A DNA stretch of 38,245 bases. Source: a virus. Under the pieces are notes generated by a model. That model searched no databases and had not been told where the DNA came from. It saw only the letters and a program-made list of their open reading frames with translations. Both the position numbers and the translations under genes were made by a program. Location of the stretch: positions 1 through 38,245 of the IMG/VR virus record IMGVR_UViG_3300033407_000062; one strand, written 5' to 3'. Positions 13,462 to 22,657 of the stretch are shown in pieces. Within the stretch, counting starts at the first letter, position 1. Every line of letters starts with the position of its first letter.

Positions 13462-15189
13462 ATGGCGAAGAAGAAGCGCACAGAGCCGCAGAGACTTCTC
13501 GACCTGCCTGTTATCGAAGCGTTATCAATCAAGGGATGGTTACAAAAGGATATAGTCGATCACCTTAACGAAATACGCCCCTATAAATTGACACAGCAAC
13601 AAGTGTCTTACGACATCGCTCAAATCCGTGAGCGCTGGGTCGAAGCCGCCACCCAGGAGATACTCGAATCCCGTGGACGCGTGCTTGCGACCCTGCGCGT
13701 TCAGCAGGAGGAAGCCTGGCGCGGATGGGTACGCAGCACCGAACCGATCAAGGTCACGCAAAAGCGCATCACCGAAGGTCCACAGGGGACAACGAAGGAA
13801 ATGACCGAGCGCACCGAAGAGGGCAAATGGGACAAGGGCTTTTTGGATGTCGTAACCGCGAACATAAAAAGCTACCGCGATATTTTAGGCATGGACGCGC
13901 CGAAGCAGGAAAAGGGCGACCTGCTAAACCCATCCGATAAGCCGCAGAATATCACCATCCCCGCCGACGTTATCGCGCCCGATATGCTGGCGTCCTATCG
14001 CGCGATCAAGTCGGGGCAGTATCATGAATTTCTGGAAGAGGGCGGGCGCGGTAGTACCAAGTCGTCATTCATAAGTATGATGTGCATTGAGTTGTTGATC
14101 AACAATCCCGACGTGCACATGCTGGCCTCCCGTCAAGTCGGTAACACGATGCGGGATAGTGTCTACGCACAACTCAAATGGGCTATCGGCGAACTCGGAT
14201 TATCCGACCTGTTCAAGACCATCACGAACCCGATGGAGATCACCTACCTGCCGACCGATCAAAAGATATATTTCCGCGGGATGGATGATGTCGGCAAAAT
14301 AAAATCAATTACACCCGTCAAGGGTTATATCGGTATTTTCTGGCTGGAGGAAGCAGATCAGGCACGCGGCCCCGAAGCGATCCGTAAGGTCGAGCAGAGT
14401 CTACGCGGCGGTGAAAAGATGTGGTTCTTCAAGTCGTGGAACACCCCCCGCCCGCTGAAGCATTGGATTAATCAATACGTCCTGACCCCCAAGAAAAAGC
14501 AATACCATCACAAAAGCAATTATATGAATGTACCGCGCGAATGGCTGGGGAGTATCTTCATCGAGGAAGCCGAACACCTGCGACAAGTCAATCCGAAAGC
14601 CTATGCCAATGAATACATGGGCGAAGCGACCGGCTTGGGCGGTACGGTATTCGAGAACGTGGTAGGCAGGGAGATCACCGATAAAGAGATCAAGCAGTTC
14701 GACCAGGTTGGGCAGGGCATGGATTACGGCTGGTTCCCTGATCCGTTCGTATGGACGCGCAGCCACTTTGACGCCGCCCGCCTGAAACTGTATATTTTCG
14801 ATGAATACCACGTAAATAAAAAGCGCAATAAAGCCGTGTATAACTATCTGGTCAAAGAAAAGCACATCGACAAATACAAGAATGAATTAGTTATCGGCGA
14901 CTCAGCATCACCGAAAGACGTGGCCGACTTCCGCGAGTACGGCATGAACATACGCGGAGCAGAGAAGGGCCCCGACTCAGTTGATTATTCCATGAAGTGG
15001 TTGCAGGGATTGGTCGAGATCGTCATTGACCCCGTGCGCTGTCCGTACACACTAAAGGAATTCTATTCTTACGAATTGGAGCAGAACAAAGATGGTGAAT
15101 TCATCAGTTCCTATCCAGACCGTGATAACCACTCGATTGATTCTGTGCGCTATCGAACTAATCTGCTATGGCGTCGTCGCGGTCAATGA
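13462..15189 (+). CDS. terL: terminase large subunit (PBSX/XtmB-like) with an extra ~170-aa N-terminal HTH-like region
   Basis: Walker A EEGGRGSTKS. Terminase-like motifs follow. The gene sits before the portal gene. Confidence 0.8.
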   Translation: MAKKKRTEPQRLLDLPVIEALSIKGWLQKDIVDHLNEIRPYKLTQQQVSYDIAQIRERWVEAATQEILESRGRVLATLRVQQEEAWRGWVRSTEPIKVTQKRITEGPQGTTKEMTERTEEGKWDKGFLDVVTANIKSYRDILGMDAPKQEKGDLLNPSDKPQNITIPADVIAPDMLASYRAIKSGQYHEFLEEGGRGSTKSSFISMMCIELLINNPDVHMLASRQVGNTMRDSVYAQLKWAIGELGLSDLFKTITNPMEITYLPTDQKIYFRGMDDVGKIKSITPVKGYIGIFWLEEADQARGPEAIRKVEQSLRGGEKMWFFKSWNTPRPLKHWINQYVLTPKKKQYHHKSNYMNVPREWLGSIFIEEAEHLRQVNPKAYANEYMGEATGLGGTVFENVVGREITDKEIKQFDQVGQGMDYGWFPDPFVWTRSHFDAARLKLYIFDEYHVNKKRNKAVYNYLVKEKHIDKYKNELVIGDSASPKDVADFREYGMNIRGAEKGPDSVDYSMKWLQGLVEIVIDPVRCPYTLKEFYSYELEQNKDGEFISSYPDRDNHSIDSVRYRTNLLWRRRGQ

Positions 15190-15271: not shown

Positions 15272-16789
15272 ATGAATAATTTTATATCGTCCATTTGGAA
15301 CTGGATCAAAGGAGTATTTGGCATGAATCAAACTCAAATAAATAAGGCATTTAATATAACCCTGATGGATGTCTCGACCCCGATGGTTGAGGCTCTTTTG
15401 TTATGGTCGAAGCTGTACAAGAATGAGGCAGACTGGACAACCGCCGACACCCCCAGCCTGTCGCTCCCATCCGCTATCGCTGGCGAAATCGCGCGCCTCA
15501 CGACCATAGAAATGGAAGTCAATATCACCGGGAAGAAACCCGACCAGGCACCCGATACAACCGCGCCCGTCGAGCCTGCCCCTTCCAAGCGTGCGGATTA
15601 CCTGTCTATACAATTTGATAAGGTGATGAGCCGACTAAGAGAGGAAGTCGAATACGGATGCGCGAAGGGCGGGATGGTCATCAAACCATACGTCAACGGT
15701 AAAGAGATCGCCTTCAACTTTGTGCAGGCTGATGAGTTTTTCCCGATTGAGTTCGACGCCAATGACGCAATGGTAGATGTTGTATTCTCCGACCAGCGTA
15801 AGATCGGCGATACCTATTACACGCGCCTGGAACGTCACACGATGGGGGATACCGTTATCAATGGCAAACCACGACGCGGATGCAATATCATCAACAAGGC
15901 GTACAAATCCAGCACTCAGGAAACACTTGGCAGCGAGATCGAATTATCAAGCGTTCCCGCATGGGCTGAACTCGAAGGCGACAAGTGGATCGCGCCGCTG
16001 GATAAACCCTTATTCTCTTACTTCAAGTTCCCGCAAGCCAACAACATAGACACCGCGTCCCCCCTGGGCGTCTCGTGCTACGCGCGCGCGGCGATGGGTA
16101 CAAATCCGCTGATCAAACAAGCGGATGATATTTGGTCTAATTTCCTGTGGGAGTTTGAGTCTGGCAAGCGGGCCATCGACGTGGATGAACTGGCGTTCGA
16201 CCGCGACTCTAACGATAACCCCATCCTGCCGAACCGCCGACTATATAGAACTTATAAACAGAGCGGTACAAGTATTGGCGCGGGCGGGGATCTGTTTAAG
16301 GAATGGACGCCGACTCTGCGAGAACAGAATATACTCGCAGGGCTGAACGCGATATTGAAGCGGATCGAGTTTGTGACATCATTGGCCTATGGCACGCTCT
16401 CCGATCCGAACCTGGTCGATAAAACGGCGACTGAAATTGTGTCACAGAAACAAAGGTCATACGCCCTTGTTAGTGATACTCAAAAGGCATTACAAGCAAC
16501 AATAGAGCAGACGGTTTGGGCTATGAATGCGTGGGCAGATATTAATAAGCTGTCTCCGCGCGGAGATTATGACGTTAGTTGCGACTTCGATGATTCTCTC
16601 ATTGTAGATAGTCAGGCGCAATTCTCTCAGGATCAACAGGCGGTTGGAATGTCTGCCATGTCTAAACAAAAATTCCTGGAACGTAACTACGGGCTGACGC
16701 CATCGGCCGCGCAGCTGTGGGTCAAGGAAGCGCAGGAGGAGCGCCCGCCCGTTGATCTATTCTCGAATCTGGATGAAACAGGATCGTAG
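15272..16789 (+). CDS. portal protein (SPP1 gp6-like)
   Basis: 505-aa ORF after terL with GAGG RBS. Size, position and acidic C-terminus are typical of portals. Confidence 0.7.
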   Translation: MNNFISSIWNWIKGVFGMNQTQINKAFNITLMDVSTPMVEALLLWSKLYKNEADWTTADTPSLSLPSAIAGEIARLTTIEMEVNITGKKPDQAPDTTAPVEPAPSKRADYLSIQFDKVMSRLREEVEYGCAKGGMVIKPYVNGKEIAFNFVQADEFFPIEFDANDAMVDVVFSDQRKIGDTYYTRLERHTMGDTVINGKPRRGCNIINKAYKSSTQETLGSEIELSSVPAWAELEGDKWIAPLDKPLFSYFKFPQANNIDTASPLGVSCYARAAMGTNPLIKQADDIWSNFLWEFESGKRAIDVDELAFDRDSNDNPILPNRRLYRTYKQSGTSIGAGGDLFKEWTPTLREQNILAGLNAILKRIEFVTSLAYGTLSDPNLVDKTATEIVSQKQRSYALVSDTQKALQATIEQTVWAMNAWADINKLSPRGDYDVSCDFDDSLIVDSQAQFSQDQQAVGMSAMSKQKFLERNYGLTPSAAQLWVKEAQEERPPVDLFSNLDETGS

Positions 16790-17157: not shown

Positions 17158-17970
17158 ATGAACCCTTATTATCAAAAAGATGGCATCACGATCTACAATG
17201 GCGATTGCCGCGAAGTCATGGCGGGCTTGCCTGATAATTCGTGTGGTCTAACGGTCACATCTCCGCCTTACAACATGCGAACCCGCATCCGTAATGGCGA
17301 GTACACCACCCGCGAACAGACAGACCACTTTAGCAGGAAGTATGAGCATTTTAGCGACGCACTTTCACCACAAGAGTATTATGAATTTCACAGTCACGCT
17401 ATCCGTGAAATGATGAGAATTTCAAATACGGTGCTTTGGAATATTCAGATTGTCACAGGTAGCAAAGAAGCCGTGTTCCGCATGATTGGCGATTTTGCCA
17501 AAGAAATAAAAGACATCATCGTGTGGGATAAAGGTCATGGTCAGCCAGCCATGCACGATAACGTAATCAATAAAGCGGCTGAATTGATTTTGATTTTTGA
17601 GAAAAACGCAACGGCAGGTAGAGAGTTTTCAAGGTCGTTTTTTCCTCGTGGTGAAATGACAGACATCTGGCGAATGAAGCGCGGCAATAATACCGAAAGT
17701 CACGGCGCAACTTTCCCGCTTCATTTGGCGCAAAAGGCTATCACTGGCTGGAGCGCAGAGAATGACGTTATCCTTGATCCATTCATGGGTACAGGTACAA
17801 GCCTAATAGCCGCAAGGAACGAAGGACGAAAAGCGGTAGGCATTGAAATCTCCGAAGAATATTGTGAGTTGGCGGTAAAGGGTCTGGCGCAAATGTCGCT
17901 CTTTACGTTGCCTAACACAGCGTCCACCCGACAGGGGCGGGCTGTGGCTCAAAATGAGTTATTCGGATAA
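17158..17970 (+). CDS. second DNA methyltransferase (N4/N6 family, SPPY motif)
   Basis: VTSPPYNM, then DPFMGTGTSLIAARNEGRKAVGIEI near the C-terminus. Confidence 0.8.
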   Translation: MNPYYQKDGITIYNGDCREVMAGLPDNSCGLTVTSPPYNMRTRIRNGEYTTREQTDHFSRKYEHFSDALSPQEYYEFHSHAIREMMRISNTVLWNIQIVTGSKEAVFRMIGDFAKEIKDIIVWDKGHGQPAMHDNVINKAAELILIFEKNATAGREFSRSFFPRGEMTDIWRMKRGNNTESHGATFPLHLAQKAITGWSAENDVILDPFMGTGTSLIAARNEGRKAVGIEISEEYCELAVKGLAQMSLFTLPNTASTRQGRAVAQNELFG

Positions 17971-18019
17971 TTATCAGGTCTTGCGTTCTCGCCCCTGCGG
18001 GTAACGCAAGCCGTTGGGC
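17910..18019 (+). repeat. 110-bp inverted-repeat-ended element, copy 2 (covers the last ~20 codons and stop of the MTase; its 3' arm 17997-18019 is a junction-motif copy)
   Basis: Aligned by eye with the reverse complement of 8512-8621. Confidence 0.85.
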
Positions 18020-18040
18020 TGACCCCGAAGGAAAATAAAC

Positions 18041-18304
18041 ATGAGCGAACATAATCCGAACGCATGGCAAGATGGTTTTGACGCATGGCAAAATGGATAC
18101 GATGACGCAATGTACGATGGTATTGATACGTCAAGCGAAATGCCGTGCAAATGCGAAGCGTGCCTGAAAGGTTACGCCGAAGGTCAAGAAGCCGCCTTGA
18201 AAGAAATCTTTGCTGGCAGTCAGTCTGCCCAACAAAGCGTGCCCCCGACTGTTGCTACAGTCGCCGCGCAAGAAGTCAATTTGGATGCCCGCAACAGCGG
18301 GTAA
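18041..18304 (+). CDS. hypothetical 87-aa protein
   Basis: GAAGGA RBS. Its stop codon lies inside a junction motif. Confidence 0.5.
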   Translation: MSEHNPNAWQDGFDAWQNGYDDAMYDGIDTSSEMPCKCEACLKGYAEGQEAALKEIFAGSQSAQQSVPPTVATVAAQEVNLDARNSG

Positions 18305-18319
18305 CGCAAACCGTTCGGT
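18297..18319 (+). repeat. gene-junction motif copy (GCGGGTAACGCAAACCGTTCGGT)
   Basis: Contains the TAA of 18041-18304 and runs into the 59-bp repeat. Confidence 0.75.
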
Positions 18320-18372
18320 GGAGCTGCGCTCACCCCAAAGAACGGGGTGGCTTGTCCACCGAACGGGGCGCG
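18314..18372 (+). repeat. 59-bp structured intergenic repeat, copy 2
   Basis: TTCGGTGGAgctgcgctCACCCCaaagaacGGGGTGgcttgTCCACCGAAcggggcgcg, with nested inverted repeats read directly. Confidence 0.9.
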
Positions 18373-18424
18373 GGATGTAATTCCGTTTTATCGGCTCTTT
18401 GAGAGCAGAAAGGTGTGGCTAAAA

Positions 18425-18661
18425 ATGGTAATGTGTTGGAGAGATAATCACGTTTTTTTGTGGGCAGACTATAATACTCTTGGCATCCCCGAAGGCTTGA
18501 TTTGCACGTGCGGCAAGCATCGCCTGACACGCTCCGCCGAACAACGGAATGATGCGGAAACGGGCATTCCAGCGGCTTGCGAGCATATGAATCGTATTCA
18601 TGGGACGGGGAACGATTGGTGTCTCGACTGTGGTTACTTCCCATTGCCGCCGCTTCCATGA
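18425..18661 (+). CDS. hypothetical Zn-ribbon protein (78 aa, start MVMCWRD)
   Basis: Contains CTCG and CLDCG pairs. The longer 104-aa ORF would start inside the repeat. Confidence 0.45.
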   Translation: MVMCWRDNHVFLWADYNTLGIPEGLICTCGKHRLTRSAEQRNDAETGIPAACEHMNRIHGTGNDWCLDCGYFPLPPLP

Positions 18662-18997
18662 ACGCCCGTTCCGCATATCCCGCGCCCCGTTAGACCCCTT
18701 CTTTCCATGAAGGGCGAACTTTGAAAAAATGAATGTTACGGCGTGCTTGAGCAACACTTTGGAGAAATCCATTCCGTGGATATGCCATAGCAGAGTAAGT
18801 CGGTAAAATTCCGACCCGCTGTTTCAGGCTTAGACCCCGCGTGTAGCGCGTAAAAAACTTCGGGCTTAGTAGCTTGTATTTCCGAGCGCGGGGTCTAACA
18901 AAGCATGCACCTGACGCTGGGGCAGTGTGCGAAATCTCAAACATTATCAAGGCTGTGGCGTTATCAGCGCGGACGGTTTCACCGTCCGAACCCCAGC

Positions 18998-19020
18998 GCA
19001 GGTAATGCCAGCCGTTAGGC
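18998..19020 (+). repeat. gene-junction motif copy (GCAGGTAATGCCAGCCGTTAGGC)
   Basis: ATG 19030 follows 9 nt later. The flank ..GCCAGCCGTTAGGCAAaTAAAACATG nearly repeats the one before ATG 17158. Confidence 0.7.
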
Positions 19021-19029
19021 AAATAAAAC

Positions 19030-19278
19030 ATGCACACTCACCCCAAGCCATTCACATTCACATTCACAAGATCGAAGCGGAAGCACTTGCGCCCGCCGAG
19101 ATTTTTTGTCATCTGCTCAGAGTGTGGCGTAGAGTTGCAGGCCGTCGAGGATGTGGACGGTTCGATCCATACATTCAGCACCAACCGCAGGCGGACGCGG
19201 AAACGGGTATACTCTTTCAGGCTGACCCCTGAGTCTGCCGAACGGGTTAGGGCTATGCAAAAAACAGGAGAGCTGTAA
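19030..19278 (+). CDS. hypothetical basic protein (82 aa)
   Basis: Contains CSECG. Coupled to the next gene. Confidence 0.45.
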   Translation: MHTHPKPFTFTFTRSKRKHLRPPRFFVICSECGVELQAVEDVDGSIHTFSTNRRRTRKRVYSFRLTPESAERVRAMQKTGEL

Positions 19279-19280
19279 CG

Positions 19281-19613: not shown

Positions 19614-21698
19614 ATGTTAGACCCCGACTTCCTTGACACACTCCCAGCCGAAGCCGTCGAGCTTTATCAGGAATTTGCCGACGGCGTGATCTCCGACCTT
19701 GCGCGTCGAATAGGTAATATGTCCTATTCATCCGCAGGCTGGCAGGCGCAGCGGTTACAGGAAGCGGGGCTTGCCTATCAGGACATCATCAAGCGCGTCG
19801 CACAACTGACAGGAAAATCAGAGGCGGCCATTCGGGGGATTTTCTACCGCGCGGGCGTCCGCTCCATGAGGTTCGACGAAAAGATATACAAGGCGGTGGG
19901 CATTGACCTGCCGCTCACGCTATCCCCCGCGATGCAGGACGTGCTGAATATAGGCATTCTCAAAACGAACGGGATACTCAAGAACCTGACACTCACGACC
20001 GCGCTATCAGGGCAACAGGAGTTCATTCGCGCCAGTGACATTGCCTATCTCGAGGTGACCAGCGGGACACGCGATTACAACAGCGCGATAAAAAAGGCGG
20101 TCACGAGCCTGGCGGATCGCGGGATCACATCCGTCAATTATCAAAGCGGCCACACGGATCAGATCGACGTAGCCGTGCGTAGAAACGTGCTAACAGGCAC
20201 GCAACAGACAGCGGGCGCGTTACAGCAGCAGCGCATGGATGAAGTCGGCGTTAATCTGGTCGCCGTGTCCGCTCATGCGGGAGCGCGTCCGTCACATCAG
20301 TTATGGCAGGGTAAGGTTTATTCCAGAACAGGCAGGCAGGGAAAATATAAAGACTTCGTAACTGAAACAGGCTACGGGACGGGACCAGGGCTTGGAGGTT
20401 GGAACTGTGTCATCGGCGATACCATGGTTTCAAGCCTTGCTAAACGTGCCGCTTACCGCCGTGAGTATTCCGGTGAGTTGATCGTCATTCACACCGCCGC
20501 AGGCAAGGAGCTTACCGTCACTCCGTATCACCCAATACTCACCGACCATGGATGGGTCGCGGCGAAGTTTCTTGACCATGGAGATTATGTAATCTGCCGC
20601 CCCGCGCTCGATGGGTCTTTTGAATCCAGCCCAGACGTAGACCAAAGCGAATCCAGAATTGAGGATGTATTTGATTCTCTTTCTGTAAGCGGGGCGATCT
20701 TCGACCTTCCTATTTCGTCCGGTAACTTCCACGGCGAGATTCCCGATGGCAAAGTCAACGTTGTATTTTCCGATGGCTTTTTGAGGGATGGCGTCGATCC
20801 CGTGATCGAGCAGGAGTTGGAAGAGGTCGGCTTCGGCTTTCCCGCGCGTTTTTCCAGTACGCTCATTTCCGAGCGCGCGCTTCCTAAGATCGTTGTACGT
20901 TCTCTTCATGCCTCTGACCGCATCGTGAGCGGCTTCGGTGAGGTCGATTCTCTCGTCGGCAGTCATTCTAGCGAGCCTGTTGACCATGGCTTCAGACCTA
21001 TCTTCGGCGATAGGTACTCCGAGTTTGTCGAGATACCTTCCGACAGCCCCCTCAGATATTCCAGTTTTGAAAGCGATTTCGTTCTTCCACATACCAGATT
21101 TATACATTTCAATCAAATCATCAGGGGTAACATTGAAGCGCCTTTTGATATATCCTTTCCAGTCATTTCCAGTGTAGACCCCGTTACGACGCAAGCAGTT
21201 TTGGATCGCATGAACAGAACAGCGATTCTTATCCGCGATGAATTGCAGGGTGTGGTTAGAGAGGTAGAGCTTGACTACATTGTCAGTATCGAGCGGAAGC
21301 CTTTTACGGGTCATGTTTATAATCTCCACACAGAAGGTGAATGGTATTCTGCAAATGGGATTATAACGCATAACTGCCGACATTCTCAATATCCATTCTA
21401 CGAGGGCATATCTGAGAACGTCTACAATCAGGAGATGCGCGAACAACTGGCTAATAAAACCGTCACGCTGAACGGCGTCGAGATGTCGCAGTACGATGCG
21501 TCACAGGTGCAGCGCGGTCTGGAGCGTAAAATAAGATTTTGGAAGCGGCGCAAGATAGCCATCGACGCGACAGGCTTGGACATAGACACATCCGTAGAGA
21601 CTACCAAAATACGTTATTATCAGAGTCAATTACGCGAATTTGTAAGGCAGACAAAACTTCCCCGCCAGAATGTGCGCGAGCAGGTTGTTGGCCAGTGA
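19614..21698 (+). CDS. head-morphogenesis / minor capsid protein (MuF, SPP1 gp7-like) interrupted by a 323-aa intein
   Basis: The exteins join as ..GPGLGGWN|CRHSQYPF.., a typical MuF conserved core. Intein blocks A, B, F and G are recognised (see the 20406-21374 feature). Confidence 0.8.
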   Translation: MLDPDFLDTLPAEAVELYQEFADGVISDLARRIGNMSYSSAGWQAQRLQEAGLAYQDIIKRVAQLTGKSEAAIRGIFYRAGVRSMRFDEKIYKAVGIDLPLTLSPAMQDVLNIGILKTNGILKNLTLTTALSGQQEFIRASDIAYLEVTSGTRDYNSAIKKAVTSLADRGITSVNYQSGHTDQIDVAVRRNVLTGTQQTAGALQQQRMDEVGVNLVAVSAHAGARPSHQLWQGKVYSRTGRQGKYKDFVTETGYGTGPGLGGWNCVIGDTMVSSLAKRAAYRREYSGELIVIHTAAGKELTVTPYHPILTDHGWVAAKFLDHGDYVICRPALDGSFESSPDVDQSESRIEDVFDSLSVSGAIFDLPISSGNFHGEIPDGKVNVVFSDGFLRDGVDPVIEQELEEVGFGFPARFSSTLISERALPKIVVRSLHASDRIVSGFGEVDSLVGSHSSEPVDHGFRPIFGDRYSEFVEIPSDSPLRYSSFESDFVLPHTRFIHFNQIIRGNIEAPFDISFPVISSVDPVTTQAVLDRMNRTAILIRDELQGVVREVELDYIVSIERKPFTGHVYNLHTEGEWYSANGIITHNCRHSQYPFYEGISENVYNQEMREQLANKTVTLNGVEMSQYDASQVQRGLERKIRFWKRRKIAIDATGLDIDTSVETTKIRYYQSQLREFVRQTKLPRQNVREQVVGQ
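20406..21374 (+). mobile_element. class-1 intein (Cys1 ... His-Asn, +1 Cys) with no recognisable in-frame endonuclease domain
   Basis: CVIGDTMV (block A), TVTPYHPILTDHGWVAAKFLDHGDYV (block B), GHVYNLHTEGEWYSANGIITHN followed by C (blocks F/G). Confidence 0.8.
20430..21314 (-). CDS. antisense homing-endonuclease-like gene inside the intein: two HTH-like repeats plus a DUF559/Vsr-like PD-(D/E)XK domain
   Basis: GGAG lies 9 nt before ATG 21314. Contains ..NEIAFKTGISEGAVGRYLDKLG.. and ..QKAIGKYNVDFAIGNLAVEVTGRNRKVEDRPAYRKRIKYILNSGFALVYVW.. Confidence 0.7.
   Translation of the reverse strand: MTRKRLPLDTDNVVKLYLSNHTLQFIADKNRCSVHAIQNCLRRNGVYTGNDWKGYIKRRFNVTPDDLIEMYKSGMWKNEIAFKTGISEGAVGRYLDKLGVPIAEDRSEAMVNRLARMTADERIDLTEAAHDAVRGMKRTYNDLRKRALGNERTGKTRGKAEADLFQLLLDHGIDAIPQKAIGKYNVDFAIGNLAVEVTGRNRKVEDRPAYRKRIKYILNSGFALVYVWAGFKRPIERGAADYIISMVKKLRRDPSMVGEYWVIRSDGKLLACGGVNDDQLTGILTAVSGTFSKA
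21360..21389 (-). promoter_or_regulatory. sigma70-like promoter for the antisense endonuclease gene (-35 TTGAGA, 18 nt, -10 TATAAT)
   Basis: Reverse complement of 21384-21389 and 21360-21365. It overlaps the intein C-terminal splice-junction codons. Confidence 0.5.
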
Positions 21699-22657
21699 CA
21701 TCATTACGGATATTGATATTCTCGAACGATGACGAAATTCTACAATTCGTTAAAGATGTCCTGCTCGATACAGGGTTCGATTCAATACTCAAGAGGGTGG
21801 AGGCTGATGTAGAGTTGGTCGCCTCTCTGAACGCCGAAGGCTGGGATCTGGTTCTGATCGACGCCTACCTGAACGGAAGCACAACGCCCGAGGAGATCAT
21901 CACGGTACTGAATGACCGCGAGCAGGAAGTCCCTTATCTGGTAATGTACGGGATGATTCGGGACATGACCGCGCTGCAGCTATTGCAGGTGAGTAATATA
22001 AATTATGTGTCGAAGGAAAACATCGCCTCATTGGGGCTGTCCATTAAAAAGGAACTGACAGCGGCGGGGGACAGGATGCGGGAGCGGATCGACCTCGAAC
22101 AGGCTACACTCCTTATTATTCAGGCGTTCGGTACCGCGCTGGAATTACGCGACCATGAAACGCGCGGGCATACGTTACGGGTCACGAAGCTGGCGATCCA
22201 ACTGGCGCGGGCTGTCGGATACCCTCGTCAAGGACTGCTCAATTTACATTGGGGAGCGCTCCTGCATGACATCGGCAAGATCGGCGTCCCTGACAATATC
22301 CTGCTGAAAGAGGGGGCATTGGATGACAAGGAACGACAGATAATAAGGTCCCATCCTGGACTAGCCTACAACCTGCTCTCGCCCATCCCATCATTGACCA
22401 AAGACATCAATATTCCATTCTGCCATCATGAGAAATGGGACGGGACAGGCTACCCGCGAAAGCTAAAGGGAAAGGCGATCCCGCTGGAAGCTAGGATATT
22501 CTCCATCGTGGATGTCTACGACGCCTTGACCAGCGACCGGCCTTATCGGGATGCGTGGAAAAAGGCGCGCGCGCTTGATTACATAAACGCCGAGCGACGC
22601 TTCTCATTCGACCCTGAGATCGTCCCCGTATTTCTGGATATGATGAAAGTAACCTAA
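21695..22657 (+). CDS. REC-like receiver plus HD-GYP phosphodiesterase (RpfG-like); start uncertain (GTG 21695 in a GTGA overlap is proposed)
   Basis: RILIFSNDDE...WDLVLID...YVSK looks like a receiver domain. HDIGKIGVP and HHEKWDGTGYP are HD-GYP signatures. Confidence 0.75.
   Translation: MTSLRILIFSNDDEILQFVKDVLLDTGFDSILKRVEADVELVASLNAEGWDLVLIDAYLNGSTTPEEIITVLNDREQEVPYLVMYGMIRDMTALQLLQVSNINYVSKENIASLGLSIKKELTAAGDRMRERIDLEQATLLIIQAFGTALELRDHETRGHTLRVTKLAIQLARAVGYPRQGLLNLHWGALLHDIGKIGVPDNILLKEGALDDKERQIIRSHPGLAYNLLSPIPSLTKDINIPFCHHEKWDGTGYPRKLKGKAIPLEARIFSIVDVYDALTSDRPYRDAWKKARALDYINAERRFSFDPEIVPVFLDMMKVT

Follow-up and report, generated by a model that had tools for sequence, protein, structure and literature searches.

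A probable homing-endonuclease gene lies antisense within the endonuclease slot of a phage MuF intein

In canonical bifunctional inteins such as PI-SceI, the coding sequence of an endonuclease separates blocks B and F of the HINT domain, a highly conserved motif of the host protein serves as insertion site, and the unit is mobile. Here, we describe an intein with the same layout in the MuF gene (19614-21698, plus strand, 694 codons) of a 38,245-nt stretch of IMG/VR virus record IMGVR_UViG_3300033407_000062; we refer to the whole of this stretch as the window. Whereas canonical bifunctional inteins carry a LAGLIDADG or HNH domain in frame, the endonuclease here is a separate gene on the opposite strand, with a predicted promoter, Shine-Dalgarno (SD) sequence and ATG of its own. 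We consider it very likely that the locus is a mobile intein whose homing-endonuclease gene occupies, as a separate antisense gene, the slot that canonically holds the in-frame endonuclease.

Separate endonuclease genes are a feature of fractured genes. In these loci (Dassa et al. 2009, PMC2677866), a Vsr-like or GIY-YIG endonuclease gene lies between the halves of a split intein, co-oriented with the host gene, which it splits into two open reading frames (ORFs), and the host protein is assembled by trans-splicing. The initial annotation of the window, made without database searches, had noted Vsr-like endonucleases in this position, which matches the published description. The likeness includes a separate endonuclease gene at the intein insertion point, a Vsr-type nuclease with N-terminal DNA-binding modules, and an endonuclease coding sequence that overlaps the intein coding sequence. 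The differences are that our endonuclease gene is antisense, the host ORF is single and contiguous, and cis-splicing is expected. Instead of the two co-oriented host ORFs of a fractured gene, we found a single 694-codon ORF; the endonuclease gene is antisense to it, as it is to the host ORF at 105 of the 105 loci described below.

The prototype of the endonuclease family seen in those fractured genes is I-Bth0305I, which has two N-terminal NUMOD/helix-turn-helix (HTH) motifs and a C-terminal Vsr-like domain (PMC3239194; PDB 3R3P). Our protein resembles I-Bth0305I and the EDxHD family in domain order, in the combination of tandem HTH modules with a Vsr-like fold, and in a length of ~270-290 aa. 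I-Bth0305I differs in being encoded in a group I intron, and the EDxHD His is absent from the window protein and from part of its family.

Antisense orientation also has a parallel in group I introns, where endonuclease genes can be encoded antisense to the host gene. Such introns are spliced out at the RNA level, ahead of translation, and hence the sense strand is under no coding constraint. In our intein, by contrast, the sense strand must stay translatable across the whole antisense gene. In the full-text literature searched, a body of text outside which most subscription journals fall, we met with no account of a contiguous intein that harbours an endonuclease gene in antisense, and the public phage records examined carry no annotation of the antisense gene. 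The locus in the window consists of the following parts.

19614..20405, plus strand: N-extein of the MuF protein (minor capsid protein 2), 264 codons, with ...GLGGWN as its last residues (Pfam and PHROG matches)
20406..21374, plus strand: class-1 intein, 323 codons, from Cys1 to His-Asn, with Cys+1 at 21375 (profiles and block residues)
20406..20573, plus strand: N-terminal splicing region, with block A CVIGDTMV and block B TPYHPILT; overlaps the 3' tail of the endonuclease ORF
20574..21293, plus strand: central ~240 sense codons, the endonuclease slot; reverse complement of the endonuclease gene; stop-free
21294..21374, plus strand: C-terminal splicing region, with block F GHVYNLHT and block G NGIITHN (ratio of nonsynonymous to synonymous substitution, dN/dS; conservation profile)
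21375..21698, plus strand: MuF C-extein, starting CRHSQYPF (two-piece tblastn)
20430..21314, minus strand: endonuclease gene, 294 codons plus TGA stop at 20430-20432 (ORF listing and translation)
21024..21287, minus strand: two HTH modules, residues 10-97 (profile 2lvs, HTH_7, AlphaFold2 (AF2) helices)
20559..20840, minus strand: Vsr/DUF559-type PD-(D/E)XK nuclease, residues 159-252 (alignment, profile, Foldseek)
21312..21314, minus strand: endonuclease start ATG, directly opposite CAT, the His codon of block F (sequence)
21324..21327, minus strand: SD sequence GGAG, directly opposite CTCC, which is part of the Leu-His codons of block F (sequence)
21360..21389, minus strand: predicted σ70 promoter of the endonuclease gene, TTGAGA-18-TATAAT (promoter scan)

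The plus and minus ORFs of this locus lie in one codon register, since 19614 and 20430 are both divisible by 3. The minus ORF spans 20430-21446, and an internal ATG at 21314 gives a protein of 294 aa. Coordinates and sequence agree with the initial annotation, which had described a 294-codon minus ORF wholly within the intein, built on the same triplets as the plus ORF and with GGAG 9 nt before its ATG. Because the triplets are shared, the sense frame is open solely if the endonuclease gene avoids TTA, CTA and TCA. Our recount of the minus ORF gave 25 Leu and 11 Ser codons with zero TTA, CTA or TCA, the same figures as had been estimated by eye. Elsewhere in the window (31 other ORFs), TTA and CTA together make up 17.9% of Leu codons, and TCA makes up 15.1% of Ser codons; given this usage, the probability of finding none of the three in the minus ORF is 1.2e-3. 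Furthermore, the plus frame was left open in 18 of 20,000 synonymous resamplings of the minus ORF. The codon count and synonymous shuffle proposed in the initial annotation thus show that an open plus frame would rarely arise by chance.

Stop avoidance is also apparent across relatives. The minus-strand protein matched 128 records among 50,697 phage genomes (tblastn), including phages of Salmonella, Gordonia, Pseudomonas, Klebsiella, Escherichia and Vibrio. Among the matches listed, nearly all overlap genes whose annotation reads head morphogenesis, MuF-like or minor capsid; in the five phage records inspected, the endonuclease match is opposite in strand to the host gene and has no annotated gene. 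A locus search from a 12-sequence alignment found 261 further relatives in IMG/VR, 80 of which were retrieved, and GTDB species genomes gave 18 more loci, including some from Chloroflexota and Actinomycetota (with Streptomyces) and one from a Bathyarchaeia metagenome-assembled genome. In the resulting set of 105 loci (84 + 3 + 18), the same-register antisense frame has no stops across the endonuclease match in 105 of 105 cases, and the other two antisense frames have 1-45. The register-frame ORF is 353-1322 codons long, being ended by a contig edge at some loci, and where scanned it encodes a Phage_Mu_F protein directly followed by the intein. Homologous inteins in more than 100 loci occupy the same MuF motif, between HPN and CR(C/H), and the blocks of these relatives read C-x-x-G-x-T, TPNHPILT, GHVYNL and THN followed by C. 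For 71 distinct endonuclease sequences (1,494 Leu and 1,258 Ser codons), 442 TTA, CTA or TCA codons are expected from extein usage and none is observed; the loci are related, such that these statistics overstate independence, although many pairs have only ~30% protein identity. At that level of identity, synonymous sites are long saturated. The earlier suggestion that the sense strand is kept free of stops applies to the whole set.

These data also bear on the possibility that MuF is effectively a fractured gene, with a sense frame that is not translated through and N- and C-parts that are trans-spliced. The endonuclease does fall in the same broad Vsr-like group as those of split-intein loci (PMC2677866). 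However, a fractured gene needs no open sense frame, and yet all 105 loci are stop-free where 442 stops would be expected. Moreover, the endonuclease genes of Dassa et al. are co-oriented with two host ORFs, whereas here there is a single contiguous ORF. Nor did we see an internal start or SD sequence from which a C-terminal part could be made, although no search was aimed at one. Hence, we regard a fractured MuF gene as highly improbable.

Some loci in the set depart from the common form. The intein-bearing ORF exceeds 1,300 codons at five IMG/VR loci (L047, L048, L056, L069 and L079); the ORF of L047 joins Phage_portal, NUDIX and Mu_F domains in a single frame and resembles a portal-NUDIX-MuF polyprotein. 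Six others (L044, L045, L046, L072, L090 and L098) have no Cys at the expected intein N-terminus (e.g. ...DHPRGKAELPGNLIVSS...) or have extra residues, HPNGR-C, and possibly represent a different splicing class or a shifted boundary. One candidate for a free-standing or sense-oriented endonuclease, P0041 (L086 1579-2967), was rejected. This protein is the N-terminal adenylation domain of an NAD-dependent DNA ligase fused in frame to an endonuclease homologue, and the MuF intein on the other strand stops abruptly. L086 has thus either been rearranged or is a chimera, and it does not contradict the common arrangement.

Which strand does selection act upon? We estimated dN/dS by the Nei-Gojobori method for up to 44 pairs with 72-97% nucleotide identity. 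Codons were threaded on the intein-frame protein alignment, a choice that favours the intein frame and is thus biased against the conclusion drawn. For the N-terminal splicing region, the intein frame has a dN/dS of 0.10 and the endonuclease frame one of 1.22 (27 pairs), and 71% of differences fall at intein codon position 3. The C-terminal splicing region gives 0.17 and 1.33, respectively, from 2 pairs only. In the centre, the relationship is reversed: dN/dS rises to 0.94 for the intein frame and falls to 0.23 for the endonuclease frame (44 pairs). The same is seen along the codon index that starts at 20334: the intein frame is the more conserved at codons 0-79 and 320-359, where intein position 3 is most variable, and the endonuclease frame is the more conserved at codons 80-319, where the most variable site is intein position 1, which is endonuclease position 3. 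Purifying selection thus switches strand, acting on the plus strand for the splicing blocks and on the minus strand for the endonuclease.

The two coding sequences meet at the 3' end of the endonuclease gene. Its last ~48 codons (about residues 247-294) overlap the intein N-splicing domain, and it is the intein frame that is selected there; the endonuclease tail is whatever the intein N-domain spells in antisense, and is not itself under selection. The locking of the two frames can be seen directly at block B: across from its Thr (ACN), the endonuclease has G, R, S or C and no other residue, i.e. an NGT codon. The endonuclease stop is simply the first TCA, TTA or CTA used by the intein frame, 14-62 codons N-terminal of block B.

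The strand switch is relevant to a second alternative, in which the sense centre is a novel intein endonuclease or DNA-binding domain and the minus ORF is its shadow, open but without function. Of all shadow frames, the antisense one in the same register is the likeliest to be open, and several window genes carry antisense-open runs of 100-280 codons. Furthermore, PHROG 15127, "head protein", aligns across the sense spacer of 19614-21695 (profile positions 107-584 of 602, E 5e-48). In contrast, the central dN/dS is 0.94 for the sense frame, with codon position 1 the most variable, against 0.23 for the minus frame; the sense centre has no Pfam domain; and, for the minus product, profile matches to HTH and DUF559 are significant and a nuclease fold is predicted with confidence. 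In a search of 5.8 billion proteins, the minus-strand translation found 46 homologues, with E values down to 1e-129, and the intein-frame translation matched 5. A shadow frame is, in our judgement, hardly credible: the minus-strand product is a real, conserved protein. Since the PHROG 15127 alignment runs through the spacer, at least one curated phage protein family includes a reverse translation of the endonuclease gene.

What, then, does the sense strand encode? The host gene is of MuF type, as had been proposed. Its N-extein matches Pfam PF06152 Phage_min_cap2 (E 3.9e-99, aa 2-265) and PHROG 581, "minor head protein" (E 2e-97), and tblastn with the exteins gives two-piece matches to minor capsid genes that lack the intein, e.g. 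that of Clostridium phage phiCD38-2. TerL (13462-15189) and an SPP1-type portal gene (15272-16789) lie upstream, which fits the head-module position after the portal gene. The intein interrupts MuF at a conserved motif, between N and C. It starts with the Cys codon TGT (20406-20408) and ends with the Asn codon AAC (21372-21374), after which comes the Cys codon TGC (21375-21377). The plus ORF matches Pfam Intein_splicing PF14890 (39.0 bits, cut-off 35.8) and TIGR01445 intein_Nterm (29.9 bits, cut-off 24.5). All of the class-1 splicing residues listed in the initial annotation, namely the N-terminal Cys, TxxH in block B, and ITHN followed by Cys, are present and are kept in relatives. The low dN/dS of the splicing regions (0.10-0.17) is indirect evidence that the intein is active in splicing.

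Between the splicing regions, a Pfam scan of the central plus frame (codons 20580-21260) matched no family, and this accords with the earlier impression that these codons hold no recognisable endonuclease domain. An AF2 model of the intein frame has predicted local distance difference test (pLDDT) scores of 59-84 in the splicing strands, which drop to 23-34 between residues 124 and 286, although with an alignment of 6 rows low central confidence is weak evidence for disorder. An in-frame endonuclease domain of the kind found in bifunctional inteins is thus not apparent by Pfam match, by dN/dS (0.94) or by pLDDT (23-34). The central sense codons are a translated spacer that is stop-free and otherwise unconstrained, and the model suggests that this spacer is probably disordered.

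The minus-strand protein belongs to a very large and widespread family, with 1,762 representatives at E<=1e-30 in a HMMER search of 1.84 billion representatives of clusters at 50% identity. Several of its 46 homologues carry HTH_7, HTH_23 and REase_MTES_1575, and two have been named "very-short-patch-repair endonuclease" by the Joint Genome Institute. Searching structures with a profile of the family gave matches to 2lvs, which has tandem HTH modules (E 2e-8), and, at profile positions 151-246, to the DUF559 structure 3hrl (E 5e-5). When 29 family members were scanned singly, HTH_7 was found in 16, MTES_1575 in 15 (E<=0.01) and DUF559 in 4. The family-level matches to MTES_1575 and DUF559 indicate a superfamily relation only. 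PHROG and NCBIfam gave no full-length match to the endonuclease, and only partial matches in the DNA-binding region. In the 29-sequence alignment, E161, Y184, D187, A194-V195-E196, G135 and G267 are invariant, and this holds for E161, D187 and E196 in the window protein as well. Compared with the EDxHD motif, E161 and D187 are invariant, the His is present just in relatives with the sequence GGGWH, and the final position is N or D.

An AF2 model of the endonuclease, built from the family alignment, has a mean pLDDT of 85.8, with values of 92-97 over the nuclease domain. Its best match among solved structures by Foldseek is 3r3p, the catalytic domain of I-Bth0305I (probability 1.0, target template modelling score 0.60), to which the endonuclease family has no detectable sequence-profile match; DUF559 structure 3hrl ranks fourth. 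The full-length model also matches phage DNA mismatch/Vsr endonuclease, NUMOD3 and DUF559 proteins in BFVD, a database of predicted viral structures. Family-level profiles, scans of single members and the AF2/Foldseek comparison therefore agree with the initial description of two HTH repeats and a DUF559/Vsr-like C-terminal module. The profile-HMM check that had been suggested for both translations was successful for the intein and for the HTH and DUF559 modules at the level of the family; the part that failed was the window endonuclease on its own, which falls below Pfam thresholds.

That failure is one of several observations that weigh against our interpretation of the locus. The window endonuclease scores 13.6 bits for MTES_1575, relative to a threshold of 38.2. 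It has GRNRK where many relatives have GGGWH, and thus lacks the His of the Vsr/EDxHD motif; judging from this substitution, it could be catalytically weakened. Block B reads TPYH in the window and TPNH in relatives. The relatedness of the loci and the shallow alignment behind the intein-frame model, both noted above, count on the same side.

Could the element be mobile? Intein-less MuF homologues, the comparison that the initial annotation had called for in order to define the homing site, do exist. The MuF gene of Salmonella phage STP-1 has 620 codons and contains the intein; the homologue in GRNsp27 has 348 codons and lacks it. STP-1 MuF matches intein-less relatives, including vB_SenTO17, GRNsp27, VSiA, VSiP and FSL SP-031, in two pieces with 88-94% identity, spanning about 1,025-1,045 nt; with GRNsp27 and others, the exteins are 92-94% identical. 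Relative to GRNsp27, STP-1 has a precise, in-frame insertion of 816 nt between AHPN and CRS (CRSTT). Nucleotide identity between these two phages is 73% in the last 30 nt before the junction, as compared with 95.7% over the upstream extein; such a divergent flank would be expected for co-conversion or target-site divergence. Furthermore, the same intein family with its antisense gene is found in an RtcB RNA ligase, between NC and HHN, and in an S-adenosylmethionine (SAM)-methyltransferase-like gene (L084 1-1290, L085 3001-4593). These insertions indicate that the composite element has moved to unrelated host genes.

This polymorphism helps to decide whether the minus-strand protein, although real, is something other than a homing endonuclease: a DNA-binding regulator, an anti-host nuclease, or an inactive relic in the window phage. 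The window protein has no GGGWH His and is below nuclease-family thresholds alone, and HTH modules could equally serve regulation. At two loci (L021 and L027), the endonuclease ORF is cut to 199 codons, with query residues 169-294 matching, and the intein frame remains open (737 and 729 codons), as if function decays. The endonuclease gene at these loci is likely decaying, which fits the decay phase of the homing cycle. Nonetheless, E161, D187 and E196 are invariant, including in the window; the endonuclease family is under purifying selection; all homologues examined occupy the endonuclease slot of an intein; and homing characteristically leaves behind what is seen here, an element that is precisely present or absent and a flank that has diverged. 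We therefore consider a role other than homing to be unlikely, albeit less so than the two alternatives discussed above.

For an antisense gene in this position, the expression signals must be read from the reverse complement of the splicing blocks. In block G, the Ile-Ile codons ATT ATA give the -10 box TATAAT (21365-21360) when read in this way, and the -35 box TTGAGA (21389-21384) is located in the C-extein, with a spacer of 18 nt. This predicted promoter has 11/12 matches and is the top-scoring site in the region. At the block-G position, 37 of 66 relatives have at least 5/6 matches to TATAAT, and TG is found at the extended -10 position in 25 of 66. The block-G I/V codon is A-ending in 42 of 62 relatives, as compared with 13.5% of extein I/V codons (p 1.6e-22). 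Similarly, 50 of 66 relatives use CTC for the Leu of block F, a codon that accounts for 26% of Leu in exteins (p 4e-17), and 58 of 66 have an SD-like motif. The start position in 66 distinct relatives is ATG in 49, GTG in 10 and TTG in 1. Since the -10 box, SD sequence and ATG lie inside intein blocks, the core signals travel with the intein. From these signals, which constitute strong, albeit indirect, evidence, we infer that the endonuclease is expressed as a separate gene from its own promoter. A terminator-like hairpin downstream of the endonuclease gene (20376-20357) is not claimed as a feature, as 2 such sites were found and 1.3 are expected in shuffled sequence.

We propose the following model for a mobile intein with an antisense homing-endonuclease gene, in which protein splicing, antisense transcription, DNA cleavage and homing are all inferred from sequence. 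The MuF precursor would be translated straight through the intein, including the ~240 reverse-complement codons, which would be tolerated as a spacer. The flanking HINT blocks would then excise the intein, joining ...GGWN to CRHS.... On the other strand, the -10 box in block G and the SD sequence and ATG in block F would drive production of the 294-aa protein with two HTH modules and a Vsr-type nuclease. This protein would cut intein-less MuF alleles in co-infecting phages, and repair would copy in the intein together with the gene. The antisense gene would plausibly be transcribed before the late structural operon, which runs in the opposite direction. Were the endonuclease an in-frame domain of a late structural protein, it would be produced late and in bulk. 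We speculate that, by lying antisense, the endonuclease gene is freed from the expression programme of the late structural genes, and so may have a timing and dose of its own.

The window itself is a siphophage-like genome or prophage. RecT and replication genes are on its minus strand; TerL, portal, DNA methyltransferase, MuF and HD-GYP protein genes are on its plus strand. No close nucleotide relative was found among deposited phages, with only the block F/G region matching Jersey-like phages. Rfam and tRNA scans of the window gave no match. The DNA N6/N4 methyltransferase gene (17158-17970) is located between the portal and MuF genes, and the ~1.3 kb that follow it (18000-19280) contain just short, mutually overlapping ORFs on both strands, with no Rfam or tRNA match. 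Directly after the MuF gene, and overlapping its 3' end, is an HD_5/HD-GYP ORF (21539-22657, plus strand; E 1e-37, residues 200-361) with a receiver-like N-terminal part; translation of this ORF probably begins further downstream than the listed TTG. A head-morphogenesis module is an unusual place for a phosphodiesterase of the cyclic-di-GMP type.

The arrangement described here has practical consequences for annotation and for experiment. A family of at least 1,762 clusters at 50% identity is unannotated in the phage records examined, and "head protein" families absorb its reverse translation. Cultured carriers exist among Salmonella Guernseyvirinae and Gordonia, Klebsiella and Pseudomonas phages, as do near-isogenic intein-less relatives. 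For intein engineering, the relevant point is that a long insert under no selection appears to be tolerated by a natural intein at its endonuclease site. Long antisense overlapping gene pairs are usually contested. The overlap described here is long and clean, with a quantifiable constraint, in the form of three forbidden codons, and a visible strand switch of purifying selection.

What does the finding mean for inteins? On balance, we favour the view that these loci represent a large undescribed intein class in which the endonuclease is antisense, its signals sit in synonymous sites of the splicing blocks, and the intein polypeptide carries ~240 residues of translated "antisense nonsense", whose sole role is to hold the host protein in frame. 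In that case, the ~880-nt same-register overlap, selected in more than 100 lineages, would be among the longest and best-supported antisense overlaps in prokaryotic viruses, and the orientation may serve early expression. The antisense arrangement would be a third mode of endonuclease-intein association, beside in-frame domain fusion and the gene breakage of split inteins. It is also a possible intermediate in, or alternative outcome of, the invasion of an intein by a free-standing endonuclease gene.

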